A stretch of DNA of 64,000 nt from a virus: positions 1 to 64,000 of IMG/VR virus record IMGVR_UViG_3300009285_002342. One strand, given 5' to 3'. The notes under the pieces are model-generated. The model saw only the letters and a list, made by a program, of their open reading frames with translations. It did no database searches and had not been told where the DNA came from. Shown piece after piece: positions 10,967 to 59,699 of this stretch (positions are counted from its first letter, which is position 1; the number at the start of each line of letters is the position of its first letter). The position numbers and the translations under genes are program-made.

Positions 10967-11245
10967 TTACCCTCTAAGGTAAAACAAAGTCCCGCCAGGT
11001 TTACAAACTTCTACTTTTTTTAGTTTACAATCCGCACCAATATGCAGAAAAATCCACGGATGCTTAGTTTGAAATCTTCCGCCGGCAAAGGATGGATGCA
11101 ATTTAAAGCCGGAAGATTCTTTTTTAGCGAATCTTAAAATATCTTCGCAATCGTGAATATCTATACCTAAATCAATAGCCATCATATCCATTTTAAGATC
11201 CTGAACAATTTGATGTGAAGTCCAAGTTTTGCCTTCCCATGTCAT
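10967..11245 (-). CDS. Hypothetical protein
   Basis: ATGA-coupled ORF. Confidence 0.65.
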   Translation of the reverse strand: MTWEGKTWTSHQIVQDLKMDMMAIDLGIDIHDCEDILRFAKKESSGFKLHPSFAGGRFQTKHPWIFLHIGADCKLKKVEVCKPGGTLFYLRG

Positions 11246-12150
11246 AGCGAATACCTATATTTCTCCATTGCTTTTTCGAATTTGCCTCTTTCTGGTTGCT
11301 CAATTAGATTTAGTACCGCATTCCTATTTACCGATTTAGATTTAAAATCGTAGATATCTCGGATATGCTTTTCGGTAAGATCGTTCCATTTTAATCCAGT
11401 ATAATTTTCTTCGGCACACGCAACATAAAATTCAGGAATTTGAACAAAATGATCATACCGAACTCTCCAACAATCCCCATCTTTATTATCGAAAAATAAA
11501 TCGCCGGCATCCATTAAACAACGCCAAGTCTGCGCAGCTCTAGTAGCAGGTGAATAAAATTGCCATTGTCCCCTAAGATATTTCGGAATATAAAGCGGCG
11601 CTTCATTATCGGCAAATTCTATCGGTTTATAATCATCCGCAAACCACCCTCTTCCTAAAGACGAAGCAACTACATCTATTCCGTCCCTAACTACATGAAC
11701 AAAATGACAATTCGGAAAAATTCGATTAAAAATTTCAAAATAATTCTGTGATTCATTTGTTTTAATTATAATCCAGGGTTTAACGGTTTCAAACCATTCT
11801 AAAGCGAAATCTCTAGTCGAAATATTTGGGCGGTTTTCATAATAATTTCCCCAATATGACCAGTCCTTTTCATTATTGTTTAGGCTTCTGCCTTGCACTA
11901 TCGGAAGAATATAATCTTCAAAAAGCGTACCTAAAAAAATACTCTTTTGTAATGTTTCATAGTAAAAACTGTTTACTCTACTTCCCCATAGCATCGGAGC
12001 ATATTTCATAATCGCCGGTTCGAAAAGATAAATAGCAGGTTCCATACTTCCAATTAATTTCCCAAAGATTGTAGTACCGCTACGACCTACACCGGAAATA
12101 ATAATCGTTCTATCCGTAAAATACTTTTCGTAATCTATCGCTGTTTTCAT
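11242..12150 (-). CDS. Sulfotransferase
   Basis: 5'-PSB loop GVGRSGTT, HVVRDG.DVVAS and VRYD motifs. Confidence 0.9.
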   Translation of the reverse strand: MKTAIDYEKYFTDRTIIISGVGRSGTTIFGKLIGSMEPAIYLFEPAIMKYAPMLWGSRVNSFYYETLQKSIFLGTLFEDYILPIVQGRSLNNNEKDWSYWGNYYENRPNISTRDFALEWFETVKPWIIIKTNESQNYFEIFNRIFPNCHFVHVVRDGIDVVASSLGRGWFADDYKPIEFADNEAPLYIPKYLRGQWQFYSPATRAAQTWRCLMDAGDLFFDNKDGDCWRVRYDHFVQIPEFYVACAEENYTGLKWNDLTEKHIRDIYDFKSKSVNRNAVLNLIEQPERGKFEKAMEKYRYSL

Positions 12151-12152
12151 TT

Positions 12153-13073
12153 TTACTCCTTTAAAAAATTACGGCTATTTAGCATTGTTCCCAGGTTATA
12201 AGATTCTTCACCACCGTAAACCTTCCAGTATGTTTCACTATTAATTTCAATTAAAATATCCGGAATGTAAAATTTATAATCATCTGGATATCTTTCCGCT
12301 TTCGTATTTCCTAGGCCTCCCATTCTTTTCGGATTTTCCGATTCTTCCCATAATTCAACGGTAAAATTACCTAATATCTGCTCATAATACGGAATACCGC
12401 GAAAAACATGCCCGGCCTTACTACAGGCAATTTCGCCTTTAAACAGTTTTTGCCCGCTTTCCTCTAATTCTTTTTTGCATTTATCCAATGTGGACCAATC
12501 CTGAAAAATATGAGCACCATGAAAAAATATTCTTTTCGCCCTGATTTCTTCAATACATAGAAAATTTACTACTTGATGCAAATTTAAAATTACTTGCGGT
12601 ACGCGCTTCCCGCTATTCATATAATAAAAATACGAAACATCGGGATCTGCAATTGTTTCTCCGAATTCCCTTACAATACATTTAAAATTAATGTATTGTT
12701 TTGCACAATTAACCATTTCTTGTATTGTAGACTTCCAATTTAAAAGATGTGGAAATAAAGACTGCATCGTTACGACATCATATTTTTCCTTTGGTCTATC
12801 CTTCGGGAATTCACCTTTTATAAAGTAGATATCGGGATATTTTTTTAGTCCATAATTCAAGCAATTCTCATCAATATCCATTACGGTCCCGTGAATTTTA
12901 GCAACTTTCCTATTAATAAATTCAATAAAATTTCCCGCCGCGCCACCGATATCCAGAATAGACCAACCCGTTTGAATCGATCCGCTATTGACAAAAAACA
13001 TACATTCAAACCCCGAAAAGGTTTTTTCGGATGGTTCTTCGTTTGCGTAAATTTCAAAATTCAAATTTCTCAT
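12153..13073 (-). CDS. Class I SAM-dependent methyltransferase
   Basis: SILDIGGAAG, MDID and YDVV..QSLFPH motifs. Confidence 0.85.
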   Translation of the reverse strand: MRNLNFEIYANEEPSEKTFSGFECMFFVNSGSIQTGWSILDIGGAAGNFIEFINRKVAKIHGTVMDIDENCLNYGLKKYPDIYFIKGEFPKDRPKEKYDVVTMQSLFPHLLNWKSTIQEMVNCAKQYINFKCIVREFGETIADPDVSYFYYMNSGKRVPQVILNLHQVVNFLCIEEIRAKRIFFHGAHIFQDWSTLDKCKKELEESGQKLFKGEIACSKAGHVFRGIPYYEQILGNFTVELWEESENPKRMGGLGNTKAERYPDDYKFYIPDILIEINSETYWKVYGGEESYNLGTMLNSRNFLKE

Positions 13074-13460: not shown

Positions 13461-14237
13461 TCATCTGCAAAACTCCTTCAATCTTAAATATCCATGGCAT
13501 GAATTACAATATACGCCATCGAAACTATTCTTTGTATAATATCCTAGACATATATCGCATCTTTCCCAATTCTTCCGTCTTTCTTCAGAAAACATCTGTA
13601 CCGTAGGCAAACCACCTTTGTGCCTTACTTCATCTTTCTTATACTTATAGGCACCGGAATATCCATATCCAGCATAATTTTCTATCCCCCGATTCGAAAA
13701 CCAGCAATTGTTCTTCCACTCGCCGTGCTGGCTATTAAACATATTAATATCGCCTCTAGAATTCATAAAAATAAGTTTTGACGAATTATAATAACAATAT
13801 TCTTGTAAAGTAGCGATAATTGTTTCATTATACAAAAAACCTTTCGGAAGTTTTTGTAGTATTTCTTCGTTAAATCTCTGTGTATCGCTTTTCCCGTCAT
13901 TCCTTCCTTCGCCAAAATATGAGGAAAACTCAAAGAAATTGCCGTTATGAATAAAAGCAAGATCGGGATTGACGAAGTGGGGATGACAAAATTCTTGTCC
14001 TATACCGGAAGCGGAAGCTGTACGGAAGTGGATAACTAAGGAAGAATCAGGAAATTCCCTGCGTACTAAGTTATATTGAGATACGAAGAAATTCCAATCC
14101 CAATGTCCCTTTAGGGAAAAAAGTTCGTTATTAGTTGCCCAAAGTATTCCGCAACCATCCGGATTAGCAATATATCCATCGTACAAACGTGTCGCAGAGA
14201 CTTCTTGTTTTTTCGGTATATAAATTCCTAAGCACAT
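13461..14237 (-). CDS. Class II (Ntn) glutamine amidotransferase, YafJ-like
   Basis: Start MCLGI gives an N-terminal Cys; NPDGCG, HFRTAS, HPH, HNG and SDT motifs. Confidence 0.88.
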   Translation of the reverse strand: MCLGIYIPKKQEVSATRLYDGYIANPDGCGILWATNNELFSLKGHWDWNFFVSQYNLVRREFPDSSLVIHFRTASASGIGQEFCHPHFVNPDLAFIHNGNFFEFSSYFGEGRNDGKSDTQRFNEEILQKLPKGFLYNETIIATLQEYCYYNSSKLIFMNSRGDINMFNSQHGEWKNNCWFSNRGIENYAGYGYSGAYKYKKDEVRHKGGLPTVQMFSEERRKNWERCDICLGYYTKNSFDGVYCNSCHGYLRLKEFCR

Positions 14238-14242
14238 TGGCG

Positions 14243-14476
14243 TTATCCCGTACTGCAAACTTTTGATGTTTCGTGTTGTATTTGATATATAGTTACTTTA
14301 TTTGTAAAGTAAAATCTTCTGCCGCAATTTGGACAACCGCCAGTAGTCTCGCGATATATAGAAATTACATTATCCCAATACTCAAATGTTCTATCACAAA
14401 CACATTTAAGTAAAGGAAGTGATTCGCCGTCAATTCCACCGAAAACAACCTTATCTGTTACGTCAAGATCTATCAT
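14243..14476 (-). CDS. Small zinc-ribbon protein
   Basis: CVC and CPNC. Confidence 0.6.
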   Translation of the reverse strand: MIDLDVTDKVVFGGIDGESLPLLKCVCDRTFEYWDNVISIYRETTGGCPNCGRRFYFTNKVTIYQIQHETSKVCSTG

Positions 14477-14687: not shown

Positions 14688-14826
14688 TTGTTTTATCCTC
14701 TATCTTTTTTATTTTAAAAAGTCTATACGAGATTCTCCATCCTTCGCATAAACCTCCAATAATATCTTCTTCGGTTAAATCAGACCAAATTTCCGGATAT
14801 TCAATTTCGAATATGATAGTTTTCAT
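14656..14826 (-). CDS. Hypothetical protein (56 aa)
   Basis: ATGA overlap with the amidotransferase stop. Confidence 0.55.
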   Translation of the reverse strand: MKTIIFEIEYPEIWSDLTEEDIIGGLCEGWRISYRLFKIKKIEDKTNELPTSISES

Positions 14827-15899
14827 TTTACTTCCTCATTGAATATCCAAGGTCTAGCAGGATCGCCGGATCTTTTTAGTAAATCCCGATTAGCGAAACT
14901 ATCCAAGACATATAAAAAATCTTGTTTCCCCATTTCAAAATAATCTAAGTAGCAATCCAAATATTCTAACGGAAAGGCTCCATCTAGTTCGTTAATGATT
15001 TTCACGCCTTCTTCTCGGTTTAATCTTCCTCTGCGAATTTCAATACTTACATCAGCTTGGCACCGACCTATACCAAATTTTAGGTAACACAAAAACATAT
15101 GAAGATCCTGTCCAATATCCCCAAGTTGTGCGTAGTTAGTAAAAGTCCCAATTTCCCCACCTACCGGCATTTCTAAACCGTATTTATGGACCGCTACCTT
15201 CGCATGTCTTTCCGGGTCCCAATCCCAAAAATAAGAACCCCAAGTAACAAAAATATCCTTTAAGTCTTCATCCGTAGGAATTCTCCACCACGGCCCGTAC
15301 TGTTCTTGGTCTTCTTGCCCTTCGTAATAACAATTTACCAAAAAATCCCTTGTGAATCTTTGTAGGTAATCGGATTTGCCCCCGTATTCAGCTTCGCCAT
15401 TTTCGGCGTACATCAAAAGTTTAATTCCTTTTTCTTTCGCCGTCTGGATAATCGCGGTAGATATACCGGTTACGAAAGGTTGTCTAGGCATTCCCTTTCG
15501 AATTAGCCAATCTTTCGCATATTTCCTGTACGCTTTAGAATCGGGAGTTATAAGAATGTTATCAAATCCAGTATTTACGAAGTTTCTCCAGTTCCGCCAA
15601 TCTAAACCGGAAGGAATCTGCGGTGCGAAAGAAACCGTTAAAGGGTGCATACCCAATTGCAATAAAACATCCGCTATGTAGGTAGAATCTTTACCTCCGG
15701 ATGCGGGTACAATACAATTCCAATATCCATCTTCCCTACGATAACTATTACATATAGTCATGAGTTTATTAAATTGATCGTCCCAATTTATTTCTTTTTG
15801 TTTCTTCTCATGCCACTGACAAGCATTGCAAACACCTTCTTCGTTAAAGGTCATTCTTGGTCTTGATTCTGGCATTAAACATCTTAAGCATCTTTTCAT
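14823..15899 (-). CDS. N-acetyl sugar amidotransferase (PseA/WbpG/WbuX family)
   Basis: MKRCLRCLMPESRP..FNEEGVCNAC; PP-loop SGGKDS; YAENGEAEYGG; YLKFGIGR. Confidence 0.92.
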   Translation of the reverse strand: MKRCLRCLMPESRPRMTFNEEGVCNACQWHEKKQKEINWDDQFNKLMTICNSYRREDGYWNCIVPASGGKDSTYIADVLLQLGMHPLTVSFAPQIPSGLDWRNWRNFVNTGFDNILITPDSKAYRKYAKDWLIRKGMPRQPFVTGISTAIIQTAKEKGIKLLMYAENGEAEYGGKSDYLQRFTRDFLVNCYYEGQEDQEQYGPWWRIPTDEDLKDIFVTWGSYFWDWDPERHAKVAVHKYGLEMPVGGEIGTFTNYAQLGDIGQDLHMFLCYLKFGIGRCQADVSIEIRRGRLNREEGVKIINELDGAFPLEYLDCYLDYFEMGKQDFLYVLDSFANRDLLKRSGDPARPWIFNEEVK

Positions 15900-16288
15900 T
15901 TTATTTCCTCTATTTCCGGAAGATCTTTTTCTACAGGATTTACAACTACTCCAAAAGATACGCACTTTGCCGTTTTAATGTTCCTTACAAGGTTTTCATT
16001 ATCTAAATCTTCCAAAGAATGTTTTTCAACAATGTAAGACGGAACTATTCTTACTTGACTATTTATCGGTATTTCTTTCATTGTTTCAAATTCGACCAAT
16101 AATTTATCATCTTGAACTTTAGCAAAAATAATTTCCCCAATCTTTTTTCTTTGATCAAAATTTATAAAAACTGGGCAACCAACTGCGGTATCAGCAAGAC
16201 TTTGAAGTGCTTTTACTAAAAATTTAGAATAACCATTAAAATTTTCAGTAACCTTATTTGCTGTCAGACTTACAGCTTTATATTTCAT
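15896..16288 (-). CDS. Hypothetical protein
   Basis: ATGA-coupled on both sides. Confidence 0.65.
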   Translation of the reverse strand: MKYKAVSLTANKVTENFNGYSKFLVKALQSLADTAVGCPVFINFDQRKKIGEIIFAKVQDDKLLVEFETMKEIPINSQVRIVPSYIVEKHSLEDLDNENLVRNIKTAKCVSFGVVVNPVEKDLPEIEEIK

Positions 16289-17025
16289 ATCGCCTTCTCC
16301 ACATTTCTAATCATCCTAATCATTTCAGCAAAAGTCTCCGGTTCCATAGACGCTTTATGATCAGGGCCTTCCTGATTTTTATTCATAGTTAAATGTACCT
16401 CTATTACCGTAGCACCCATCGCTACCGCTGCTACCGGAATTTCAGGTAACCCAGAATGATCTGAAAGACCTATCCTCCTTTTAACGTATCCCTCTCCGAT
16501 ACGCCAATTCTCTAATCGTTTCAATTCCAAAAGCCGAGATTCACTAGGCTTTGTAGGATATGCAGAAACACAATGAAAAAAAGTAGCGTCTGTACATATG
16601 GCTTTCCACGAAATTAATTCAATTTCTGCATCCGAAGAAATACCGGTAGAAATAAACAATTTTCCTCTTTTTTGATATGCTTTTTCTATTATCGCATCTA
16701 TCATATCCAGATTCTTTACTACAGCCCGATTAGACGGAATCTTAAAAATCTTTACCCCTAAAGAATCCACAAATTTTAAAGATTCCATATCGAAAGCAGT
16801 ACAAAACCATTCTAAACCGAAAGATTCAGCATGAAGTTTTGTTATTTCTATCTCTTTTTCGTTTAAACGAAGATCGGAAATAGCTAGAAATTGATCTTTC
16901 CCCCAAAGTTGAAATTTTACAGCATCCACACCAGCCTTCTTCGCTTCTTCTATAAGTTGGATCGCTTCGCTGTATTCTCCGTTGTGATTGACTCCGATCT
17001 CAGCTACGATTGTTACTTTATTCAT
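16285..17025 (-). CDS. neuB: Nonulosonic acid synthase (NeuB family), short, lacking the C-terminal AFP/SAF domain
   Basis: AEIGVNHNG, GVDAVKFQ, KIPS, HCVSAYPT, GLSDHS, IEVHLT and GPDHKAS motifs. Confidence 0.93.
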   Translation of the reverse strand: MNKVTIVAEIGVNHNGEYSEAIQLIEEAKKAGVDAVKFQLWGKDQFLAISDLRLNEKEIEITKLHAESFGLEWFCTAFDMESLKFVDSLGVKIFKIPSNRAVVKNLDMIDAIIEKAYQKRGKLFISTGISSDAEIELISWKAICTDATFFHCVSAYPTKPSESRLLELKRLENWRIGEGYVKRRIGLSDHSGLPEIPVAAVAMGATVIEVHLTMNKNQEGPDHKASMEPETFAEMIRMIRNVEKAI

Positions 17026-17028
17026 TTT

Positions 17029-17241
17029 TTACTCCTTTTGTTCTAGAACTTTAAATTTAACACCTTCAGCAATTATTACTTGAACTTCTTGTATCCCTAC
17101 CTTTTCTAAAACACCTTCGATTGTTTTTCTAAATCTATCAATTATTTCTGCGTTCAGATAACGGTCTGACTCTACAATTAAAATATTCCCTTTTTTCAAT
17201 TCCAATTTCGATATAGTTTTGATCAAATCTAAATCGGTCAT
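17029..17241 (-). CDS. Hypothetical protein
   Basis: GGAGG RBS. Confidence 0.65.
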   Translation of the reverse strand: MTDLDLIKTISKLELKKGNILIVESDRYLNAEIIDRFRKTIEGVLEKVGIQEVQVIIAEGVKFKVLEQKE

Positions 17242-17274
17242 ATTTTCCTCCTAATCGTTCTCTAGTATTCTTCA

Positions 17275-17493
17275 TTAACTGCAAATTATTTTATATCCAC
17301 ATTGAGGGCATCTAACAAACTTAAAAATATTTCTTCCAATTGGTGAATTGCTTATATTTACCCTCATAATATCCCAAGAAGGTTTTGCGAATTGGCAACT
17401 ACATTCTTTACAAGAATATTTTTTCCAATCTTTTGGAATTTTTCCGGGTTTAAGAATAATTACGTCGTCCTGTTTTCCTATATATCTGTCCAT
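17275..17493 (-). CDS. Small zinc-ribbon protein
   Basis: CKEC and CPQC. Confidence 0.65.
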   Translation of the reverse strand: MDRYIGKQDDVIILKPGKIPKDWKKYSCKECSCQFAKPSWDIMRVNISNSPIGRNIFKFVRCPQCGYKIICS

Positions 17494-17501
17494 ATTTTTC
17501 C

Positions 17502-17588
17502 CCTAATCGTTTTTAAGGCGTTTTTATTTTTACCCGTAGGGTATTTTATAGGCTAAGGGATAGATCGTTTAACCTAAGCGATTCTACG
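17502..17588 (+). repeat. Dispersed TIR element, copy B
   Basis: Same conserved blocks as copy A; supplies the TAG stop of the upstream - strand gene. Confidence 0.85.
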
Positions 17589-17886
17589 GCGTTTCGGAAG
17601 GTATTTTATCGGTATCGCCTTCCGCCTTTTTATTACAGAACTTATAAAGCTCCTGTATCGCCTCAACTAAAGGTTTATATTGATCTTCTGGGAAACCTAA
17701 CACAATCGAAGATTCTTCACATCTTCCAATAAATTTGTCAAAAATATCTTTAGGATAATCTTTTAAGTGTATTCCGAGCAAAAATATAACTGATTGCCAT
17801 AAAATATCAACTATTGCATCACTTCGAATCACTTTTGGTTTTTTAAGGTCTTCTATATTAACAATATTCGATTTATCTTTTTTCAT
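17584..17886 (-). CDS. Hypothetical protein
   Basis: ATGA-coupled to the dehydratase. Confidence 0.65.
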   Translation of the reverse strand: MKKDKSNIVNIEDLKKPKVIRSDAIVDILWQSVIFLLGIHLKDYPKDIFDKFIGRCEESSIVLGFPEDQYKPLVEAIQELYKFCNKKAEGDTDKIPSETP

Positions 17887-18794
17887 CCTAATGCCTCCTC
17901 ACTCGTATAAGCAAAATTATCAGGAACCGATTTCCCGTATCCCTTCCTTCCATCCGGAAACGTAATATATCCACCGTCCTTCTCAAACGTTCTAGATGCA
18001 TAAACAGAAGAAATTAATTCTTCGTGCATTTTTTCACCCGGCCGTATCCCGATAATTCTTATTTCCGCTTCTGGATATATTTCTTTCCCCACGTCTACTA
18101 TTCTACGGGAAATCATCTTAGGGGTAAAGATTTCCCCACCACTCATTGTTTCTAAAGCTAAAATTACCCTTTCCGCAGCCTCGTCTAAAGTAATAAAAAA
18201 CCGAGTCATTTTTTTATCCGTTATCGGAATATACCCTGTTTGTTTTTTAGCTAAGTCAATAAACAACGGAACCACGCTACCCGAAGAACCCCAAAAATTT
18301 CCGAATCGTATTACGGAAAACTTTGTAGTTTTAGGACTGTAGGCGTTACCGGCGAGAAACATATGATCTGAGGCTAACTTCGAAGCCCCGTAAAGATTAC
18401 ATGGATTAACGGCTTTATCGGAAGAAATCGCCAAAACTCTTTGTACCTTTCTGTCGATAGCCGCATCTATTACATTTTGCGCTCCGTTAACGTTAGTTTG
18501 TACCGCTTCGAACGGATCATATTCGCACTTGTCTACATGCTTAACCGCAGCACAATGAATTACTGCGTTTACATCGTCCAAAGCCCGATAAAGTCTGTCT
18601 CTATCCCTTACGTCCCCCAGCATATATCTTACAGGATATACAGACTTGGGGAATTTTCTTTCCATTTCGACTTGGTTAAACTCGTTGCGAGAATATACAA
18701 TAACTTTCTCCACCCCTCTCGCAACGAGTTTCGGAAGAATCGCTTGCGCTAGACTTCCTGTACCGCCAGTAATAAGAACGGTAGAAAATTTCAT
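17883..18794 (-). CDS. pseB: UDP-GlcNAc 4,6-dehydratase, PseB/FlaA1-like
   Basis: GGTGS, GDVRD, HCAAVKHV..CEYDP, SSDKAVNP.NLYGASK, RFGNF.GS.GSVVP, MTRFFITL, GIRPGEKMHE. Confidence 0.85.
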   Translation of the reverse strand: MKFSTVLITGGTGSLAQAILPKLVARGVEKVIVYSRNEFNQVEMERKFPKSVYPVRYMLGDVRDRDRLYRALDDVNAVIHCAAVKHVDKCEYDPFEAVQTNVNGAQNVIDAAIDRKVQRVLAISSDKAVNPCNLYGASKLASDHMFLAGNAYSPKTTKFSVIRFGNFWGSSGSVVPLFIDLAKKQTGYIPITDKKMTRFFITLDEAAERVILALETMSGGEIFTPKMISRRIVDVGKEIYPEAEIRIIGIRPGEKMHEELISSVYASRTFEKDGGYITFPDGRKGYGKSVPDNFAYTSEEALG

Positions 18795-19084
18795 TCTTCT
18801 ACCGCCTCGTAGGTAGCGTCAAAAATATCAGGTTTACACGGATAAAATTCTCCTTTAATACCTTTTATGACCCAATCACCTGGGCTAACCGATAATTCCC
18901 CTTCTAAAGTCGAAATAAGAAAATCGTAACCTCCATCTTCTAGTCTACCGCAATAAGTCGCAATTTCCATTTCCCCTTCTTTTATTCCTCCGTTAATCCA
19001 ATCGCATAATTCGTTAGCAGAATTTCTAGTTCCACTCCATTTCCTTGCTTCAATAACTACCGGTTTTTTTCTGAATTTTAGCAT
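18791..19084 (-). CDS. Conserved phage protein (RKKPVVIEA...TLEG...GEFYPCKPDIF family)
   Basis: Characteristic widespread phage motif set. Confidence 0.75.
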   Translation of the reverse strand: MLKFRKKPVVIEARKWSGTRNSANELCDWINGGIKEGEMEIATYCGRLEDGGYDFLISTLEGELSVSPGDWVIKGIKGEFYPCKPDIFDATYEAVEE

Positions 19085-19206
19085 TTTTTACCCTTTCATT
19101 GATAGTTGTTTCATCTGTAAAATAAATCTTCTTTCTCTGCGAACCTGAATTTTTCTTGTGTTAATTGACTTCCTTTTCCGATAATCTTTCTCTTCCTTTT
19201 CGTTCT

Positions 19207-19437
19207 TCATAGCAACCTCCTCCGTAAACTCTTAGCGTATTGTGCTAACCAACCATTCGTAAAGAACCAAGGTATACGTTTAAGTTGTTTATCTTCAATT
19301 GAACTTACTATTTCCTCAAGTTTTCCTGGTAATATTTCATCGCGCATTAAAGTATAAAGAAGAACAATAATTTTATCTTCGGTAATTATATTTCCAGATT
19401 CTTCCCTCATTCTTTTATTTTTATCTTGTTTTTTCAT
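19207..19437 (-). CDS. Hypothetical protein
   Basis: ATGA overlap, GGAGG RBS. Confidence 0.65.
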   Translation of the reverse strand: MKKQDKNKRMREESGNIITEDKIIVLLYTLMRDEILPGKLEEIVSSIEDKQLKRIPWFFTNGWLAQYAKSLRRRLL

Positions 19438-20525
19438 AGTAACCTCCTGATTGTACTGCAAACTTTTGAAGTTTCACTGTCAGTCATTAACGTAGAACAA
19501 GGCAAACAAATCCCTCTTCGAAAGATCATTTCTGCGACTGGATAACTTTCCCTATCAATGAAGGCTGGGCTTTCATTGAGCGGTCGAAATACGCGCCGGG
19601 TAGGGATGCCCTCGGCTTGAAGTTGTGATTGAAACGTAGGAACATGCCGCCCTTCGGGCAATAAGGCCGCTGTATACCACCAGTTAGGAAAGGTGCCTTT
19701 GGTTGCCTTTTGGAATTGCAATATATCCGAAAGTTCGGTTTCATAGATTGCGTGAATTCTTCGTTTTCTTTCCAGAAAATAAGGGAGTCTGTGAAGCTGT
19801 GAGAGTCCAAGGGCGGCGTTAAGTCCTGGCATTCGGTAATTATATCCAACGTAAGAGTGCAGTTCGTCATAACCACTTCCGTAATATCTCCGACCTTGAC
19901 ACGACAATCCCCTAAGATAATTAATTGGGTTTTCTGGACCAACGATTAAACCTCCTCCTCCGGTAGTGATTATTTTATTCCCGTTGAAAGAAAAACATGA
20001 AAAATCCTCTACCCCTGTTCTAGTTAAATAATTCTTCCTATGTATAGAACCTAAAGACTCCGAACTATCCGCTATAACGAAAATTCTATATTTTTCTATT
20101 TTATCGAGGATTTCTATACCGTTGACAGGTACACCATAAAGATCAACATAAACAACACCGATAAGACGGTCGTTCATTAATCTATCTATTTCGTTAGGAT
20201 TAATATCCCAAGTATCTTCGTCTACATCGCAAAATTTTATCTTCGCCCCTATATATTTAACAGCATTCGCAGTAGCAGCAAAAGTTAAAACTGGTAATAT
20301 TACTTCGTCTTCCGGTTTTACGCGGCAACCTAAAAGAGCAAGATGCAAAGCGGAAGTCCCACTGTTTACCACTAAGACATTTCCCGGTTTTACATTCAAA
20401 TATTCAGCTATCACTTTTTCGAAATCGCCTACTATCGGCGAAGACGTAGAAACACCTGCCAATATCGCTTTTTCTAAAGATTTATAATCATCGGAATTAA
20501 GATTTTGAAAGTCTAAAGAAATCAT
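19434..20525 (-). CDS. DegT/DnrJ family PLP sugar aminotransferase (LegC-like)
   Basis: NSGTSALHLAL, TFAATANA, DSSESLGS, FSFNGNKIITTGGGG and GYNYRM motifs. Confidence 0.93.
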   Translation of the reverse strand: MISLDFQNLNSDDYKSLEKAILAGVSTSSPIVGDFEKVIAEYLNVKPGNVLVVNSGTSALHLALLGCRVKPEDEVILPVLTFAATANAVKYIGAKIKFCDVDEDTWDINPNEIDRLMNDRLIGVVYVDLYGVPVNGIEILDKIEKYRIFVIADSSESLGSIHRKNYLTRTGVEDFSCFSFNGNKIITTGGGGLIVGPENPINYLRGLSCQGRRYYGSGYDELHSYVGYNYRMPGLNAALGLSQLHRLPYFLERKRRIHAIYETELSDILQFQKATKGTFPNWWYTAALLPEGRHVPTFQSQLQAEGIPTRRVFRPLNESPAFIDRESYPVAEMIFRRGICLPCSTLMTDSETSKVCSTIRRLL

Positions 20526-20676
20526 TGTATTCTTCCCGTTATCTCTAAGGCAAAAAGAAACATTGAAAGAACAAAAGATAAAGAAAATCCAATACTACCA
20601 AGTATCTGATTACTCTTAGTGGATTGAGCAATCCCGCATACCGAAATCAAAAGCATAGAAAGTATAAATACCGTTT

Positions 20677-21702
20677 TCATATCTTTTCCTTTAAAATATT
20701 TACAATCCTTCCCACTACGTTCCCGCCTTGATACGGAATATAACTAAAATCATAATTCTTTGCCTCCAATCTTTTAAAGGCGTACTCAATATCTTCCAAT
20801 TCGCATCGGCAATCAATTACAGAAGAAGCCCTTTCCCTACCTTTTTGTCTACTACCTATGTTAATCGTAGGAACCCCTAAAGCCGGCGCTTCAATAATCC
20901 CGCAAGATGAATTTCCTACTATTGCCTTAGCCATAGAAAGAACCTCTAAAAATTTAGATCTTTCGCTATGTTCTAAAACTAAGCTTGCAGACAGAGAATG
21001 TTCTGCAAGCCTATCTATCGCTTTATTTATTTCGTATCCACCGGGATCGCTATTGGCGGTAATAAAAATCTTAGATTCCGGCCGTTTTTGTAAAAAATAA
21101 AGAACTTCCCCGAAATTTTCTTTTTCTAAAGTATTAGGATGATAAATAATAAGAAGATAACCAAGATCCTTTTCCCTAGGCTTTAATCCTTCGCATCCTA
21201 ATGCACCTACGCAAAATACATTTTTTCTACCTAAAGATTCTAAACGGTATTTTGCGTTTTCGGTAGCGGGGAAATGCAGATAAGACATTCGGGAAATACA
21301 ATCACGCCAAACATCATCAGTATTTCCGCTTACTTCGCCACCGTGAAGATGCGCTATTTTTATTCCTAAAGTATAGGCGACTTGTGCCGCTGCGAAGATT
21401 TCTTGTCTATCCCCTAAGACCAAAACCATATCCGAATTCAAATTAAACAGAATTTCAGAAATTGATATACAGGCTAAACCTAAAGACTTACAGGCACCTA
21501 ACGCAGTATCGGAAGAAAGAAGGATCTCAGTTTTTAGACATTCAACGTCAATATCCTTAACAGTGTAGCCATGTTGCGGAGAAAGATGACTTCCCGTAGC
21601 TAAAACGGAAAGATTGAAGAATGAATCGCACTTTAGTTTATTTACTAAAGGTTTTAGTAATCCCCAATCAGCACGATTAGAAGTAATTATCGTTATTTTC
21701 AT
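20677..21702 (-). CDS. neuC: Hydrolysing NDP-N-acetylhexosamine 2-epimerase (NeuC/LegG)
   Basis: TSNRADWG, TGSHLS, LGDRQE, HLHGGEVSG, GNSSCGIIEAP and GSRQKGR motifs. Confidence 0.92.
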   Translation of the reverse strand: MKITIITSNRADWGLLKPLVNKLKCDSFFNLSVLATGSHLSPQHGYTVKDIDVECLKTEILLSSDTALGACKSLGLACISISEILFNLNSDMVLVLGDRQEIFAAAQVAYTLGIKIAHLHGGEVSGNTDDVWRDCISRMSYLHFPATENAKYRLESLGRKNVFCVGALGCEGLKPREKDLGYLLIIYHPNTLEKENFGEVLYFLQKRPESKIFITANSDPGGYEINKAIDRLAEHSLSASLVLEHSERSKFLEVLSMAKAIVGNSSCGIIEAPALGVPTINIGSRQKGRERASSVIDCRCELEDIEYAFKRLEAKNYDFSYIPYQGGNVVGRIVNILKEKI

Positions 21703-21703
21703 A

Positions 21704-22057
21704 TTAACTTTTAAAACCTTGGAATTTTTTGATTAACTTTTCCCTAACCTTAAAAACATTATCTATCAATATTCTGACCCAATCATCTTCAGAAACCCAA
21801 TATCCGTTCAAAATCTGATCTACAATTTTAAGACTCGTCGTATGATATAATTGTGGATTTTTTAAAACATCATAAATGCAGTTTATATGAACTCTTAAAA
21901 TATCTACCCCGTCGTTAAAATGATAATGTCTAAGAACCTTAACATTGACTTCGTCAAACTTATGGCAAATAACACAAGTATTTTCTTGAACAAGTCTTTC
22001 GTTTTTTCTTTCTTTATTTTTCGATCTCCACCTTTCCCATTTATCAATAAAATTCAT
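21704..22057 (-). CDS. Hypothetical protein
   Basis: Coupled ORF with AAGGA RBS. Confidence 0.6.
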   Translation of the reverse strand: MNFIDKWERWRSKNKERKNERLVQENTCVICHKFDEVNVKVLRHYHFNDGVDILRVHINCIYDVLKNPQLYHTTSLKIVDQILNGYWVSEDDWVRILIDNVFKVREKLIKKFQGFKS

Positions 22058-22267
22058 TTCTAAATCCTTTCTATTAATTTATAACTATATTCCTATTAAC
22101 GGAAAACATCATAAAAAGAAATAAAATCACGAATAACTGAACGACCGTAATACTAATTAATTCTAGTATTTTATCCGGCGTTTTAAAACACAAAAATATA
22201 ATAGCTAAAAGCCAGCAAATCCCGGTTATCTTTAAAAAAGTAGATCCTATTACAAGTTCTTGTATTT

Positions 22268-22477
22268 TTATTTATCCTCTATCGGCGCAAATAAAACATA
22301 TCCCGGAAGGTCTATTTTTCTGTAAATCAATCCCAATTCTTCTAACTTCCGGCATTCATTAAAAATTCTCGTATTATTCGAATCACGAAAAGGATAACCA
22401 TGAAGCCCCTTTCCTGTAATTGCAAATTTACCTTCGCCTCTAATCAAAGACAATAATTCTTGTAAACAGTCATCCAT
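22268..22477 (-). CDS. Hypothetical protein
   Basis: Coupled ORF. Confidence 0.6.
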   Translation of the reverse strand: MDDCLQELLSLIRGEGKFAITGKGLHGYPFRDSNNTRIFNECRKLEELGLIYRKIDLPGYVLFAPIEDK

Positions 22478-22479
22478 TT

Positions 22480-23103
22480 TTAAATTCTCCCTGTTATCCC
22501 GCCGTCTACGATTAGATTTTGCCCAGTAATGTACGATGATTCTTCGCTGATTAGGAACTTACAAGCCTTCGCAACATCTTCCGGAGTAGCCATTCTTCCC
22601 ATAGGCGTCTTCGAAACATACCTTCCTACAAAAAGATCGTCCTGATTATCGAAAACACCGCCCGGGCTTACGCAATTAATTCGGATCTTCGGAGCGTACC
22701 TTACCGCTAAACACCGGGAATAAGCAATAATAGCAGCCTTCGCAGCAGTGTACCAAGACGGCATCCCCATTCCCGTTCCATCGTATAAAGAATCGTCAGG
22801 CCCGATTATTCCGTAAATCGAAGCAAGATTAACAATACTTCCTTCCTTCATTCTTTCAGCGAATTCGGAAGTCACGTTCATAAAGAAAGAACAATGTGGT
22901 TCAAAAGCTCTAGGATACGCGCAATTCACTAAACCGACAATATCGTGCAATTCAAAAAGGGTATTTAAAATATATCTTTCGGAAAGATTCCAATATAGAG
23001 AAAGTCTTGGGTCGGAAGGCACAACATTATAATTATACCGCAAACTTTCGACTATCGCTTTCCCTATTAATCCTTCGCTTCCTGCTATAACTATGGTTTT
23101 CAT
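22480..23103 (-). CDS. SDR oxidoreductase (PtmA/ElaC-like)
   Basis: GSEGLIG, NCAYPR, ASIYG, YTAAK, NCVSPGG and GQNLIVDGG motifs. Confidence 0.9.
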   Translation of the reverse strand: MKTIVIAGSEGLIGKAIVESLRYNYNVVPSDPRLSLYWNLSERYILNTLFELHDIVGLVNCAYPRAFEPHCSFFMNVTSEFAERMKEGSIVNLASIYGIIGPDDSLYDGTGMGMPSWYTAAKAAIIAYSRCLAVRYAPKIRINCVSPGGVFDNQDDLFVGRYVSKTPMGRMATPEDVAKACKFLISEESSYITGQNLIVDGGITGRI

Positions 23104-23105
23104 TA

Positions 23106-23468
23106 TTAACTTTCTATTGAATGTTTGCTAAAAAATCGAATAATCGCTTCTGTATCTTGGATATTTGCTTTCGCTCTTAATAAAAAAATAAACTCTTTCA
23201 TTGTTTTAGTTTCTACAGTCGGATCAGTAATAATAATATCTCCGTTAATTATCATCTTTACTTTCCAGCCAGTCTTTGTCTTAATATTGACTAATTCCGC
23301 AAACAATAAAATTTCATCTTTTGTCCAATTTTTAGGTGATTCAACCAAAATAGTCCGAATTGTAGAACCCCTATTCCAGATATTTGCACTTGATGTATCA
23401 GAATAACTCATATTATCATGATAACAAGTATTTGAAGAACTACTAGAATACCTCCAATATTCAAACAT
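23106..23468 (-). CDS. Hypothetical protein
   Basis: AGGAG RBS. Confidence 0.6.
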   Translation of the reverse strand: MFEYWRYSSSSSNTCYHDNMSYSDTSSANIWNRGSTIRTILVESPKNWTKDEILLFAELVNIKTKTGWKVKMIINGDIIITDPTVETKTMKEFIFLLRAKANIQDTEAIIRFFSKHSIES

Positions 23469-23477
23469 TTTTATCTC

Positions 23478-23672
23478 CTATGCTGCGCATTCCCAGCAAA
23501 GATAAACCATTTCGCCTTTGCTATTCGCCGTATATTTCGAAGTACAAAATTTTCCACAGCAATCACATTTATGCGTAACCTTACATTCTGTCTCAAAACA
23601 GAAAGGCCCTTCTTCGCCGGAATGTTTACTATGAAATTCACAATTAGATTCATAACATTCTATAGCCATCAT
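23478..23672 (-). CDS. Small Cys-rich protein
   Basis: Multiple Cys pairs; TAATG coupling. Confidence 0.6.
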   Translation of the reverse strand: MMAIECYESNCEFHSKHSGEEGPFCFETECKVTHKCDCCGKFCTSKYTANSKGEMVYLCWECAA

Positions 23673-24019
23673 TATTCCCCTTTCACTACCTTATAGGCTT
23701 TTATGAAAGATCCATCAGGAATTACGGCACCGGGAAGTATTAAACAATAAGCTCCGATGCGGACGCTGCTACCTATCGTAATTTTCCCTTCTGTTTCGTT
23801 AATCGTATTTCGACTAAGAATACAACAATACGGGCCGATTTGAGTTCCTTCTCCTATTTCTACGCCTTTTTGTGCATTAATCAAAACACCGTGCGCTATA
23901 TCGGTATATTTACCTAATTTTAAATTACCTGGATGCAACACCGTCCACCCATACTCGGTAGGAATGCTATGTTCAATCTTAGGCATTTTCCAATTCGGAA
24001 ATCTTTCTCTGTTTGTCAT
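23672..24019 (-). CDS. Left-handed beta-helix acetyltransferase
   Basis: Hexapeptide repeats: LKLGKY, VEIGEG, TQIGPY, ITIGSS, VRIGAY, ILPGAV. Confidence 0.85.
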   Translation of the reverse strand: MTNRERFPNWKMPKIEHSIPTEYGWTVLHPGNLKLGKYTDIAHGVLINAQKGVEIGEGTQIGPYCCILSRNTINETEGKITIGSSVRIGAYCLILPGAVIPDGSFIKAYKVVKGE

Positions 24020-24393
24020 CCTTCAACCTCGTCTAAAGCAGTTTCGGCCAAATACGCTATTTCTAAAGCGTATTTCTTTCTCGCATCTTCGTCATCGGCA
24101 CAATTCCAAAGATTAAAAATACTAAGTTGACAAACTTCCGTTTCTTCGTCAATATCTTCGGGAAATTCAAAGTCTCCTTTATCTATCGGCCATTTTACTA
24201 AACAATCACCACAAAGAAGTCTATTGTTTTCTGAATATTGGCATAATACACAATTCGAAACCCAATCTTTACTTTTTACGTAAGAAGATTTACATTCGGA
24301 ACCATTTTCCGCTAAACAGTTCCACATTTCCATACATTCTTCTAAGGCTTCTATTTTACTTAGCATAATATCCCATAGACATAATAACGACAA
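24016..24393 (-). CDS. Hypothetical Cys-containing protein
   Basis: CVLCQY and CGDC; coupled. Confidence 0.65.
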   Translation of the reverse strand: MSLLCLWDIMLSKIEALEECMEMWNCLAENGSECKSSYVKSKDWVSNCVLCQYSENNRLLCGDCLVKWPIDKGDFEFPEDIDEETEVCQLSIFNLWNCADDEDARKKYALEIAYLAETALDEVEG

Positions 24394-24513
24394 TCACCCA
24401 TCCAATTAATCCTAAATACTCTGGCCAAGTCACATTAGCGCCGAATTTCTTTAGCTCAATAAGTTGTACCAGATAAAAGGCAACAATAAAAAGAGAAAGA
24501 AAAATTAAAAATA

Positions 24514-25224
24514 TCATAATCCCTCCAAGATATGTTTTCGAAACAAAAACTCGGCAATATCGAAATCATTTTGTGTATCTATGTCTGTAGCTTGCCAGTC
24601 TTCCATTAGGTAAATTTCTGAACGATAGGAAATCGGAGAGTCTAATTTATAATCCGACCATCCCCTATCGTAGATATAAATCGAAGCGTTTAGATCGTAG
24701 TAAGGCCAAGAATGATTATAACCAGACGGTTGTACACATCTTTGATCATTACCGATAAAACCAGACACAACTTGATTAAACCATGGAAGTCTTCTAGCCT
24801 TTGTAACAGAAAACAATGTAGGTGGCTTCTTTTCCTTAAAAAGTTTTAAGGCGTTAGCAATATCATCAGGTTTTCTTAAAGGGGAAGTAACGTCCAGATC
24901 GATTACTGCATCGTATTTGATTTTATAATGCTCTTCCGCCTTCTCTGTAGCATATCGAATTACGGCTAATTTTGGAACTTTGTCCCCGTTTAATTCTTCA
25001 GGACGACCTAAGATATACCGCCCCCAACATATTTTCAAAAGAAGTTCTTTGTCAATATCAGAACAAATCACAGTATCTACTGTATCGGATAGACGATAAT
25101 CAACAAAATCTTCCGCCTGTTCTAAAGTCCATCTCATTAACGGTTTCTCGCAAAAATTCTTAATATTTTTACCGGGAAGACGTTTACTGCCCTTGCGGGC
25201 TACGATAGTGATTAGAATATTCAA
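24514..25224 (-). CDS. neuA: CMP-nonulosonic acid synthetase (acylneuraminate cytidylyltransferase)
   Basis: ARKGSKRLPGKNIK, RPEEL..D, LDVTSPLR, NASIY and DIDT..DF motifs; TTG start overlaps upstream TGA. Confidence 0.93.
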   Translation of the reverse strand: MNILITIVARKGSKRLPGKNIKNFCEKPLMRWTLEQAEDFVDYRLSDTVDTVICSDIDKELLLKICWGRYILGRPEELNGDKVPKLAVIRYATEKAEEHYKIKYDAVIDLDVTSPLRKPDDIANALKLFKEKKPPTLFSVTKARRLPWFNQVVSGFIGNDQRCVQPSGYNHSWPYYDLNASIYIYDRGWSDYKLDSPISYRSEIYLMEDWQATDIDTQNDFDIAEFLFRKHILEGL

Positions 25225-25418
25225 TGTTGTATCCTCTTCTTCGCTGCTTTCTTCCAAGCTTTAAGGCCCATAGACCAAGCCAAAACGGCGTCTTCCGGAG
25301 TCATAGCGTTATCGAAAGTTTCCTCATCAATAAGTTCATGAAGCTTTAGCCATGCTTCGTCGAATTGAACTTCCCCGTAATGACTGGTAATATAGTTATC
25401 AAGATCGTTTTTGTTCAT
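25221..25418 (-). CDS. Hypothetical protein
   Basis: Coupled on both sides. Confidence 0.65.
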   Translation of the reverse strand: MNKNDLDNYITSHYGEVQFDEAWLKLHELIDEETFDNAMTPEDAVLAWSMGLKAWKKAAKKRIQH

Positions 25419-26254
25419 CCCCGTATCCTCATAATTTTTCGGAAAAGTTCTGAAGCGGAAAACAGGTTATTTTCTAAAACTGGATTGCCAATATTACGGA
25501 AGAAATAACGAAGTTGATTTTCATACATTTCTTCTGTAGCGGAATAATGAAGAATTTTATTTTCGGAAGGTTCTACCCATTCTACAAAACGGACTTCTTC
25601 TTTTGAGTCTATATCAAGAATTATATCACACTCAAAATCATCTTCAAAAACCGCAGTAAGTTCCGAACCATGTTCAATATTATTTTTCCAATCCCTAGGC
25701 CAACCTTTCAATTGTTCTATCGGTCCAAAAAGAAATTCTGCTAAGTCTATTTCGTGACTTAACTCAAGCAACACACCTCCCCCTTTCTCTTTTTCAAAAG
25801 AATAAGACGCCTTACCCCATTTATTTATATCCGTAGTGCAGACAATTCCCGCCCATACTGCGTTCTTTATTTTTTTCCTTACGGAGAGAAGTCCGGAATG
25901 AAACCTAAACGGATAGGCTACGTAGGCAGTAAGATTCTTCCTTCCTACGATGTATTGTAAATCATCTAATCCATCTAAAGAAGCGGAAATAGGTTTTTCA
26001 ATAAAAAGATGCATTCCGCGTTTAGCGCACTCTATCGCGTTCGGAAGGTGTAGATAGGTAGGGGAAGTGATAAAGGCTACATCGGGAAAAATAAAATCTA
26101 CTTCTTCCCATGAATGTAAGTCTGTAATGAACGGAAAGGAATTTTTCGAATTGCCAGAACGTAGAGCGAATAGTTCATAATCGGGAAAAATGGAATGGAT
26201 TAATCGGAGGTGTTTTTGCCCTATTGAACCTAAACCAGTAAATAATATTTTCAT
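25415..26254 (-). CDS. Gfo/Idh/MocA oxidoreductase (PtmF/ElaA-like)
   Basis: GLGSIGQKH, FIEKP, AYPFRFH and GGGVLLELSHEID motifs. Confidence 0.92.
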   Translation of the reverse strand: MKILFTGLGSIGQKHLRLIHSIFPDYELFALRSGNSKNSFPFITDLHSWEEVDFIFPDVAFITSPTYLHLPNAIECAKRGMHLFIEKPISASLDGLDDLQYIVGRKNLTAYVAYPFRFHSGLLSVRKKIKNAVWAGIVCTTDINKWGKASYSFEKEKGGGVLLELSHEIDLAEFLFGPIEQLKGWPRDWKNNIEHGSELTAVFEDDFECDIILDIDSKEEVRFVEWVEPSENKILHYSATEEMYENQLRYFFRNIGNPVLENNLFSASELFRKIMRIRG

Positions 26255-48819: not shown

Positions 48820-49023
48820 TTATAATTTTGGTTCCATAATCCCTTCTTCATGCATTTTTTCGAAAAACTTAAAAAGATTTAACAAAAATTTATCATTATC
48901 GTTAACTTTTATATCCCATTGATTAAACAGAAAATCCAACAAATTTGATTCTGGATTTCCAAATTCACCAGATTCCATATAATCAAAACAACTTCCGTAT
49001 TTTTCTTCATATTTAAAACACAT
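48820..49023 (-). CDS. Hypothetical protein
   Basis: TAATG-coupled to DnaE. Confidence 0.55.
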   Translation of the reverse strand: MCFKYEEKYGSCFDYMESGEFGNPESNLLDFLFNQWDIKVNDNDKFLLNLFKFFEKMHEEGIMEPKL

Positions 49024-58851: not shown

Positions 58852-59699
58852 TATCTTCGAAGAAACCCCGTTCCTTTTTGCCTTTTAACGGTTTCTTTTC
58901 TTTCTTCGCCTTCTCTGCTATCAGCCGTTGAATCAGCTTCTTCGACACCCCGCCCGATTTCCTCGATTTCCCGCCCATTTTCTTCCTCCTGTATTGATTC
59001 TAAGAAACATCCTTCGTCATACAGACAACCCGCGACAATTCCTTTCATTCCAAACTTATCCCCTTCGATTACTGCAAAATCATTCTTCTTACCGAAGAAA
59101 AACTTTACAGTATTCGAAAATGTAAAAAGGGCTAAAAGATCGGCGGTCCTTAATCCTATCGGCCCGAAGTCTTCTTTTATCGTCTTCCCCCATGATACCC
59201 CGAAACCCTCTTTCACTTGCGTTAATTCTACGGTAGAACCGGAATAGATGTCCCTTTGTAGAAGAAGCGGTTTCCGATTCTTAGCTGAAACCTCAATATG
59301 ACTAAGGCTTTCTTCTAAAAGAGAAAGAACTTCGGTATGCAAATCCAAACGGTTATCGCCTTTTTTCTTATAAAGTTTCCGAAAAGAATCATCTATTTCG
59401 TCAAAAGTCCGCTTAGAAGTAGCACAAGATTTTTTTCTTACGAAACCAGCGGCGTTTTGCGTAAATACAATTTTCCCGTCTATTAACTTAAAATCCGGCG
59501 AATCGTACTGATTAGATTCCATACCGATCTTTTCAGGAAATTCTTCTTTCGAATCAAAATGCAGAATAACTGTATTGTCGAAGTTGGCTATGTAGATAGA
59601 CTTATTTCCTAAGAAGACTTCGTTTCTTAAATGCCCATTTTGAGTTAAGACTACTGCTATAGAAAGTATTTTTTCGGTCATTTGATTAATCATAAACAA
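58851..59699 (-). CDS. Hypothetical protein, possible second clamp-like fold
   Basis: Alternating helix/strand pattern, ~230 aa core plus charged tail. Confidence 0.5.
   Translation of the reverse strand: MFMINQMTEKILSIAVVLTQNGHLRNEVFLGNKSIYIANFDNTVILHFDSKEEFPEKIGMESNQYDSPDFKLIDGKIVFTQNAAGFVRKKSCATSKRTFDEIDDSFRKLYKKKGDNRLDLHTEVLSLLEESLSHIEVSAKNRKPLLLQRDIYSGSTVELTQVKEGFGVSWGKTIKEDFGPIGLRTADLLALFTFSNTVKFFFGKKNDFAVIEGDKFGMKGIVAGCLYDEGCFLESIQEEENGREIEEIGRGVEEADSTADSREGEERKETVKRQKGTGFLRR

Follow-up and report, generated by a model that had tools for sequence, protein, structure and literature searches.

A predicted nonulosonate pathway in a tailed phage lineage combines a PseB-derived dehydratase with legionaminic-type enzymes

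Nonulosonic acids are bacterial surface sugars of flagellin, capsule and lipopolysaccharide (LPS), and it is by their stereochemistry that phages, antibodies and lectins recognise them. Clusters for legionaminic acid (Leg) activated by cytidine monophosphate (CMP) are exemplified by that of Chryseobacterium aahli (locus L125), which encodes a dehydratase of 395 amino acids (aa), a LegC aminotransferase (539 bits), a NeuD-type acetyltransferase, a 336-aa NeuB synthase, the 2-epimerase NeuC, a PtmE-like nucleotidyltransferase, a cytidylyltransferase, an oxidoreductase, a short-chain dehydrogenase/reductase (SDR) and the amidotransferase WbuX. Other clusters are linked to 8-epi-legionaminic acid (8eLeg). 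In Escherichia coli O108, the O-antigen contains 8eLeg5Ac7Ac (PMC7685785), and Acinetobacter baumannii KL49 carries lgaA-F plus elaABC, for which 8-epimerisation by ElaA/ElaC has been proposed at the CMP-sugar level and not enzymatically demonstrated (PMC13656337). Here, we analysed a comparable gene module in a window of 64 kb, the first part of the 115,125-bp IMG/VR virus record IMGVR_UViG_3300009285_002342. The record is estimated to be ∼84% complete, and our negative results for the whole record carry that limit. From gene identities, synteny, phylogenetic placement and residue patterns, all read directly, we infer the catalytic steps, the stereochemistry and the acceptor of a miniaturised, phage-encoded pathway. 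It would be fed by host UDP-N-acetylglucosamine (UDP-GlcNAc) and yield a CMP-activated 5,7-diamino-3,5,7,9-tetradeoxynon-2-ulosonic acid from the legionaminic family (D-galacto core), which is probably put on a virion protein. We give this reading a probability of roughly 0.55.

The module shares with L125 a LegC-type aminotransferase, NeuC, a NeuB/LegI-type synthase, a cytidylyltransferase, a Gfo/Idh/MocA oxidoreductase, an SDR and WbuX. It differs in its first enzyme, which is PseB-derived instead of being LegB or of the 395-aa type, and in the lack of a PtmE-like nucleotidyltransferase, no NTP_transferase/PtmE-like sugar-1-phosphate nucleotidyltransferase being matched in the whole 115-kb record. 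Moreover, the acetyltransferase is cut to 115 aa, the synthase has no SAF domain, all enzymes are 5–30% shorter, a sulfotransferase is added and the carrier is a phage. Judged by family placement, the hybrid is one PseB-derived gene placed in an otherwise Leg-type pathway. The module occupies the minus strand, as do all its genes cited below, from position 26254 down to 11242. Its 13 genes are transcribed in the order oxidoreductase, cytidylyltransferase, acyltransferase, SDR, NeuC, aminotransferase, dehydratase, NeuB, a 130-aa open reading frame (ORF), WbuX, a glutamine amidotransferase (GATase)-like gene, methyltransferase and sulfotransferase, with about 12 small ORFs without any family match scattered between them. 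A preliminary description made from the sequence had placed the pathway at 16285-26254. Every gene that it named was recovered there on the minus strand, and its limits proved too short, since the pathway runs on to 11242 through WbuX, the GATase-like gene, the methyltransferase and the sulfotransferase. Whole-record searches also agreed with its statement that PseG and a nucleotidyltransferase for sugars linked to guanosine diphosphate (GDP) are missing (no match to the PseG model TIGR03590 in the 115 kb).

The dehydratase (303 aa, Polysacc_synt_2 family; 17883-18794) scores 356 bits with TIGR03589, the PseB equivalog model (cut-off 408), and 61 bits with the LegB model (cut-off 475). PseB is its best-scoring family, and it shares with Helicobacter pylori FlaA1/PseB ∼55% identity over the aligned region and the same D-K and Y-x3-K motifs. 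It departs from PseB by its score below the equivalog cut-off, its separate clade and its motif R-F-G-N-F-W. Its neighbours, and those of its phage relatives, are never PseC, PseG or PseI but always a LegC-like aminotransferase and NeuB, plus NeuC where the locus extends that far. For comparison, we assembled the 80 bacterial loci encoding the nearest relatives of the phage NeuC. A PseB-type dehydratase is absent within 10 kb in 78 of them, and the other two also carry their own LegB. Where inspected, the pathway dehydratase of these loci is LegB or the 395-aa type; an enzyme of ∼395 aa occurs in 18 of the 80, and four loci examined in detail have a true LegB (496–537 bits, cut-off 475) beside LegC. 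The loci of Lysinibacillus and Metasolibacillus were considered as bacterial hybrids and rejected, because each has its own LegB beside LegC and the PseB belongs to a neighbouring cluster. Against these 80 loci, the phage lineage alone combined a PseB-type dehydratase with a NeuC pathway. It is plausible that, with such an enzyme, the phage can tap the plentiful pool of UDP-GlcNAc and need not make a separate sugar nucleotide.

The combination of PseB-type motifs with NeuC had led the preliminary description to propose C5 inversion and an unusual stereoisomer. The motifs are present as it had stated, D126, K127, Y135 and K139 all being kept, and the hybrid gene set is real, unusual and conserved; it is the premise that such motifs mean C5 inversion that failed. 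The residues behind 5-epimerisation have not been identified, according to a 2022 JBC review (PMC8987622), and Pen, a 5,6-dehydratase, shares the [ST]DK...Yx3K fingerprint in the form TDK...Yx3K (PMC8987622), so that the PseB motif shows the family and not the stereochemical outcome. A dehydratase phylogeny, which the preliminary description had proposed to build, puts the enzyme in the PseB superclade as a separate clade. Indeed, the window enzyme, five phage homologues and the metagenomic sequences P0002-P0018 and P0021 form one clade (FastTree support 96; IQ-TREE support 97 in the SH-like approximate likelihood ratio test, SH-aLRT) that is placed next to or inside the canonical PseB group and is distant from the PglF-like and 395-aa types.

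Compared with 84 canonical PseB-clade rows, the phage clade differs consistently at residues 164 and 167 only, the motif R-F-G-N-F-W standing in place of R-Y-G-N-V. Residue 164 (codon at ∼18303-18305), the variable position of R-x-G-N, is a tyrosine in all 84 canonical rows, in the 95 best database homologues outside the short clade and in the solved enzymes FlaA1, CapE and FnlA, which are inverting or 5-epimerising. It is a phenylalanine in the retaining PglF, in Pen and in the 395-aa dehydratases of Leg clusters. Among the 24 rows of the phage clade, 21 have phenylalanine and one each serine, proline and tyrosine. On this pattern, residue 164 may mark or determine inversion at C5. A residue that is absolutely constrained in inverting enzymes and free to vary in the NeuC-linked clade argues against assuming inversion. 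In work attributed to Schoenhofen et al. in 2006, PseB reportedly also forms, slowly, the D-xylo sugar used by PglE-type aminotransferases, so that even an inverting enzyme could feed a Leg route.

The next two enzymes were correctly recognised in the preliminary description as a LegC-like aminotransferase and a NeuC-type hydrolysing 2-epimerase. For the aminotransferase (DegT family, 363 aa; 19434-20525), LegC is the best model with 264 bits (cut-off 420), compared with 197 for PseC. In the tree, the phage clade (support 99) falls outside the PseC group and joins the LegC of the bacterial loci L090 and L101, both adjoining a true LegB. On this placement, we regard the phage aminotransferase as a descendant of LegC, and LegC acts on a D-xylo sugar. 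The best match of the phage enzyme in the PDB is 7B0M, for which a literature search returned nothing. NeuC (NeuC/LegG type, 341 aa; 20677-21702) reaches 308 bits with TIGR03568, above the cut-off of 236, and the GDP/UDP-N,N'-diacetylbacillosamine 2-epimerase 5xvs is its top match in the PDB (189 bits). These assignments bear on the idea that the module is a divergent pseudaminic acid (Pse) pathway. The PseB-like dehydratase speaks for it, as does the cytidylyltransferase (247 aa, PtmB/ElaB/LegF-like; 24514-25257; PF02348 42.7 bits), for which PseF scores highest of the NCBIfam models (72 bits, below the cut-off). However, PseG is missing from the record, NeuC is above its cut-off, the synthase and the aminotransferase stand outside the PseI and PseC groups, and the acyltransferase is of the hexapeptide-repeat type, unlike PseH, which is a GNAT enzyme. 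Gene content thus already contradicts a Pse pathway, which we consider very improbable.

The synthase (NeuB/LegI side, 246 aa; 16285-17025) matches PF03102 with 172 bits and the NeuB model with 197 bits against 145 for PseI. It consists of the TIM barrel only, and no SAF domain was matched anywhere in the 115-kb record, in line with the earlier remark that a NeuB of 246 aa lacks the AFP/SAF domain. A NeuB phylogeny, another proposal of the preliminary description, puts the phage enzymes on the LegI/NeuB side: the six phage synthases, of 237–296 aa, form a clade (support 95) that is sister to 77 bacterial NeuC-linked LegI-like synthases and is apart from the synthases of viral Pse-type loci, i.e., not with PseI. 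Since all six are this short, the loss of SAF is probably old and tolerated. The nearest solved chain, the sialic acid synthetase of Leptospira borgpetersenii (6ncs, 96.6 bits), has 290 residues and is likewise without a C-terminal SAF/AFP domain. Its identity to the phage enzyme is low, and the histidine motifs SDHS and EVH of the phage synthase align with its own. The 130-aa ORF that follows (15896-16288) and overlaps the NeuB stop codon was considered as a detached SAF domain and rejected, given its predicted prohead-protease (Peptidase_S78)-like fold and the lack of any SAF match in the record. Its Atlas model has a predicted local distance difference test (pLDDT) score of 0.83 and a template modelling (TM) score of ∼0.8 to a Peptidase_S78-like fold. 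This ORF is well away from the head genes, and the related phages lack a homologue of it. The minimal hexapeptide-repeat acyltransferase (115 aa; 23672-24019; PF00132 46.6 bits) is a candidate 4-N-acetyltransferase; it scores 24.7 bits with the NeuD family (cut-off 160.8) and is kept at the same position in the related phage loci L003 and L004.

The module is conserved in related phages. An IMG/VR profile search with the nearest dehydratases gave 556 PseB-like genes, and among the 80 of those loci that we examined, five other contigs carry homologues of the window pathway genes (29–57% identity). L003 and L004 have the full module with unchanged gene order, and L005, L007 and L032 have part of it; L080, a sixth locus, shows weak matches to NeuC and the aminotransferase. 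The related phages also share the portal, capsid, protease-like protein and large terminase (TerL) with the window phage at 33–47% identity. Together, the shared structural genes and the module suggest that the pathway was inherited along with this group of phages instead of being acquired recently. Beyond this group, megablast of the pathway region against GenBank phages gave no match, nor did a single-protein NeuC scan of IMG/VR, and NeuB homologues were found in only three records of GenBank phages, with 27% identity.

Two further enzymes of the module recall the 8eLeg clusters. The oxidoreductase (Gfo/Idh/MocA, 279 aa, PtmF/ElaA-like; 25415-26254; PF01408 52.7 bits), which has homologues in L003 and L004, and the short classical SDR (207 aa, PtmA/ElaC-like; 22480-23103; adh_short_C2 94.5 bits, PRK09186 143 bits, PtmA 80 bits) flank the cytidylyltransferase. 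The E. coli O108 cluster has this same order (locus L168: Gfo/Idh/MocA, cytidylyltransferase, oxidoreductase), which agrees with the elaABC-like arrangement reported earlier, except that the phage block is interrupted by the acyltransferase and small ORFs. As in the module, the three-gene block stands beside LegC, NeuC and NeuB in both E. coli O108 and A. baumannii KL49. Unlike the phage, E. coli O108 has a 404-aa dehydratase and a nucleotidyltransferase, and the phage proteins are only 28–31% identical to its own (oxidoreductase 28%, cytidylyltransferase 31%, SDR 31%). No structures of ElaA or ElaC were recognisable in the PDB copy searched.

How would the sugar be built? The PseB-derived 4,6-dehydratase would convert UDP-GlcNAc into a 4-keto-6-deoxy sugar, having displaced two enzymes of bacterial clusters: the dehydratase, be it LegB or of the 395-aa type, and the nucleotidyltransferase PtmE. 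The LegC-derived aminotransferase and the minimal hexapeptide acyltransferase would then give a 2,4-diacetamido sugar nucleotide, from which NeuC would remove the nucleotide while inverting C2. Condensation with phosphoenolpyruvate by the SAF-less NeuB/LegI-type synthase and activation of the resulting nonulosonate with CMP by the cytidylyltransferase would follow. The WbuX amidotransferase, the methyltransferase and the sulfotransferase would then tailor the sugar. The core depends on the configuration of the intermediate, a D-configured one leading to Leg and an L-configured one to 8eLeg or acinetaminic acid (Aci). Most likely, the dehydratase in effect supplies the D-xylo (retaining) 4-keto sugar and hence the Leg core, and the Gfo/Idh/MocA and SDR pair may turn CMP-Leg into its 8-epimer, as proposed for ElaA/ElaC. 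We tentatively favour Leg as the core; 8eLeg, by whichever route, is possible yet more doubtful, and Aci or another isomer is unlikely.

The bookkeeping of the preliminary description was right in itself: hexose C5 becomes nonulosonate C8, and C5 inversion plus 2-epimerisation leads to 8eLeg, or to Aci if C4 is aminated as by PseC. It agrees with the definitions of Aci and 8eLeg (PMC5595891), a point in favour of a direct route in which the dehydratase inverts C5 and the LegC-like enzyme and NeuC act on the L-configured intermediate. Such a route, undescribed in bacteria, would make 8eLeg directly from 2,4-diacetamido-2,4,6-trideoxy-L-gulose, or Aci with a PseC-like C4 amination. The place of the dehydratase in the PseB superclade with the complete D126, K127, Y135 and K139 set is in its favour, and the PseB/NeuC pairing, kept across the phage lineage and absent from the 80 bacterial NeuC loci, is no accident. 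Nevertheless, the motif does not determine inversion (PMC8987622), the dehydratase belongs to a separate clade and scores below the equivalog cut-off, and the tyrosine invariant in inverting enzymes is lost in that clade. Besides, the aminotransferase descends from the D-xylo-acting LegC, the D-xylo sugar is reportedly a slow product of PseB itself, and an ElaA/ElaC-like pair, for which a route to 8eLeg is known, would be redundant. We therefore regard direct inversion as somewhat unlikely. The conserved mixture of Pse- and Leg-type genes does not show an unusual stereoisomer, and ordinary Leg, or 8eLeg through the known ElaA/ElaC-type route, is at least as likely as the unusual direct route.

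The use of the sugar was approached through candidate transferases. No classical glycosyltransferase appeared in Pfam scans of 20 further large proteins, no match to GT2 was obtained, and Maf (PF01973) gave a single match of 13 bits. This match is a 320-aa ORF (genome 98791-99753, minus strand; L165:14791-15753) with the capsid block on one side and a tail-fibre-like gene on the other. In three related phages, it is 59–61% identical over matched stretches. Among its PDB profile matches, nine of 11, including the seven best, are GT42 sialyltransferases, namely Cst-II, Cst-I and a Pasteurella enzyme (E 0.04–0.5). In a Foldseek search, its AlphaFold model (pLDDT 84) retrieves Cst-II and Cst-I as best hits (E 2e-4, probability 1.0, TM 0.3–0.44), with other sialyltransferases and Maf ranking lower. 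In its predicted fold, the protein resembles Campylobacter Cst-II/Cst-I and Maf, and two collinear motifs align with theirs, G-x-x-P-S (N-terminal) ... N-Q-x-Y and G-[VI]-D ... Y-x-F-[ED]. It differs from Cst-II by its marginal sequence similarity (E 0.04) and its long C-terminal helix, and no equivalent of the catalytic His188 of Cst-II was identified in it. A 590-aa homologue in a related phage (L171:286-2058) has what we read as an inserted intein-like segment after GVDMATDSEY, inside the conserved G-V-D-M-A-x-D. Such an insertion point suggests that this motif marks an enzyme active site. A linkage of the whole GT42-fold family to nonulosonate genes was considered and rejected, as it holds for close relatives only. 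The protein is a candidate CMP-nonulosonate transferase, and its link to the pathway is suggestive only.

This GT42/Maf-fold enzyme, whose gene stands among those for head and tail, would probably transfer the sugar to a virion protein. The alternative is that the sugar is not meant for the virion. In that case, CMP-nonulosonate would flood the cell and host transferases would decorate flagellin, LPS or capsule, resulting in a superinfection block or a receptor change, or the pathway would mainly drain UDP-GlcNAc. The lack of a GT2 match and the 13-bit score of the sole Maf match would fit this alternative, and prophage genes are already known to change the nonulosonates of capsules (PMC12053666). 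It is also consistent with the position of the module in the window phage, beside a divergent early region, remote from the structural genes and separated from TerL by at least 16 kb. In the relatives, however, the module directly adjoins the portal gene in four loci (L004, L005, L007 and L032) and is flanked by both TerL and portal in L004, and the head and tail block includes the conserved GT42-fold protein. Replication genes are of the lytic type, and no integrase was seen among the proteins scanned. Since the GT42-fold gene and the TerL-portal position of the module in relatives favour glycosylation of the virion over remodelling of the host surface, we hold the latter to be unlikely. In a bolder version of virion glycosylation, a tailed-phage lineage would make a sulfated, amidinated nonulosonate by a route unknown in cells, in which an inverting PseB-derived dehydratase and LegC/NeuC/LegI-type enzymes yield 8eLeg or Aci directly, and a GT42-fold transferase would attach it to the phage's own particle. 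This version is distinctly improbable.

Several observations weigh against our overall reading of a phage-made sugar of the legionaminic family destined for the virion. A number of pathway enzymes score below their equivalog cut-offs, and the 115-aa acyltransferase and the SAF-less synthase are forms whose functions are putative. Among solved structures, the dehydratase is nearest to the inverting H. pylori FlaA1 (259 bits, and clearly nearer than to PglF, with 116), and it keeps all four catalytic residues of the D-K...Y-x3-K signature. The correlation of tyrosine or phenylalanine with outcome rests on five solved enzymes and context labels, with no published mechanistic basis found, and L032, a member of the phage clade, keeps the tyrosine. 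PtmF/PtmA-like pairs are also present in Campylobacter, a maker of plain Leg, so that the oxidoreductase/SDR pair does not predict 8-epimerisation. Finally, the virion acceptor is putative, and distant homologues of the GT42-fold protein have nonulosonate genes within 10 kb in only five of 32 loci of at least 12 kb.

The remaining genes of the module point to modification of the sugar. WbuX (14823-15965; TIGR03573 266 bits, cut-off 203) belongs to the N-acetyl sugar amidotransferases, a family that makes acetamidino groups and which we take to include PseA and PtmG. Copies 30–54% identical occur in all five related phage loci, and its presence points to an acetamidino group on the sugar. The 265-aa protein (13461-14258) has a weak similarity to class-II glutamine amidotransferases (PF13230, E 0.0016, below cut-off). 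As its homologue directly adjoins WbuX in L007, it is possible that it serves as ammonia donor for WbuX. The methyltransferase, dependent on S-adenosylmethionine (SAM) (306 aa; 12153-13073; Methyltransf_23 and Methyltransf_25, 28–29 bits), has no homologue in the related phage loci. The sulfotransferase, of the type using 3'-phosphoadenosine-5'-phosphosulfate (302 aa; 11242-12150; PF13469 37.6 bits, cut-off 27), is the last module gene in all six phages, in which its motifs GRSGTT (5'-phosphosulfate-binding) and R-x7-S (3'-phosphate-binding) are invariant. These two enzymes point to further tailoring.

The nature of the replicon, overlooked in the preliminary description, is settled by its structural genes. 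The record encodes an HK97-type major capsid protein, a portal, TerL and a 1640-aa tape measure protein, and is that of a tailed phage. It also encodes major tail proteins, a head-tail adaptor, a replication set (DnaE-like polymerase, clamp, UvsX and exonuclease) and four transfer RNAs. Two major-tail-protein paralogues of 247 and 239 aa stand side by side at genome 92833-94308 (minus strand). Traffic of homing endonucleases is visible in a NUMOD3 gene directly downstream of the major capsid gene (genome 100949-102046, minus strand) and in an HNH segment at residues ∼1061–1150 of the DnaE-like polymerase (window 49023-53276, minus strand). A second small metabolic cluster (window 59690-63856, minus strand) comprises a 469-aa radical SAM protein, an aldo/keto reductase of 327 aa and a protein of 356 aa that shares its PHROG match, phrog_13321, with the radical SAM protein.

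To conclude, no complete phage-encoded nonulosonate pathway was found in the literature searched, in which only prophage epaAB and O-acetyltransferases turned up; prophage genes are known to modify host nonulosonates (PMC12053666). Distinctive here are the displacement of LegB by a PseB-derived enzyme, the conserved sulfotransferase and the SAF-less synthase. The PseB-derived clade offers a natural experiment on the residues behind C5 inversion in UDP-GlcNAc 4,6-dehydratases, with tyrosine versus phenylalanine in R-x-G-N as the candidate. Besides, the SAF-less synthases and the 115-aa acyltransferase would represent minimal versions of enzymes of biotechnological interest. Complete, conserved and streamlined, with its own tap on UDP-GlcNAc and an added sulfotransferase, the pathway raises the possibility, of which we found no description in the literature searched, that phages coat their own particles with nonulosonates.

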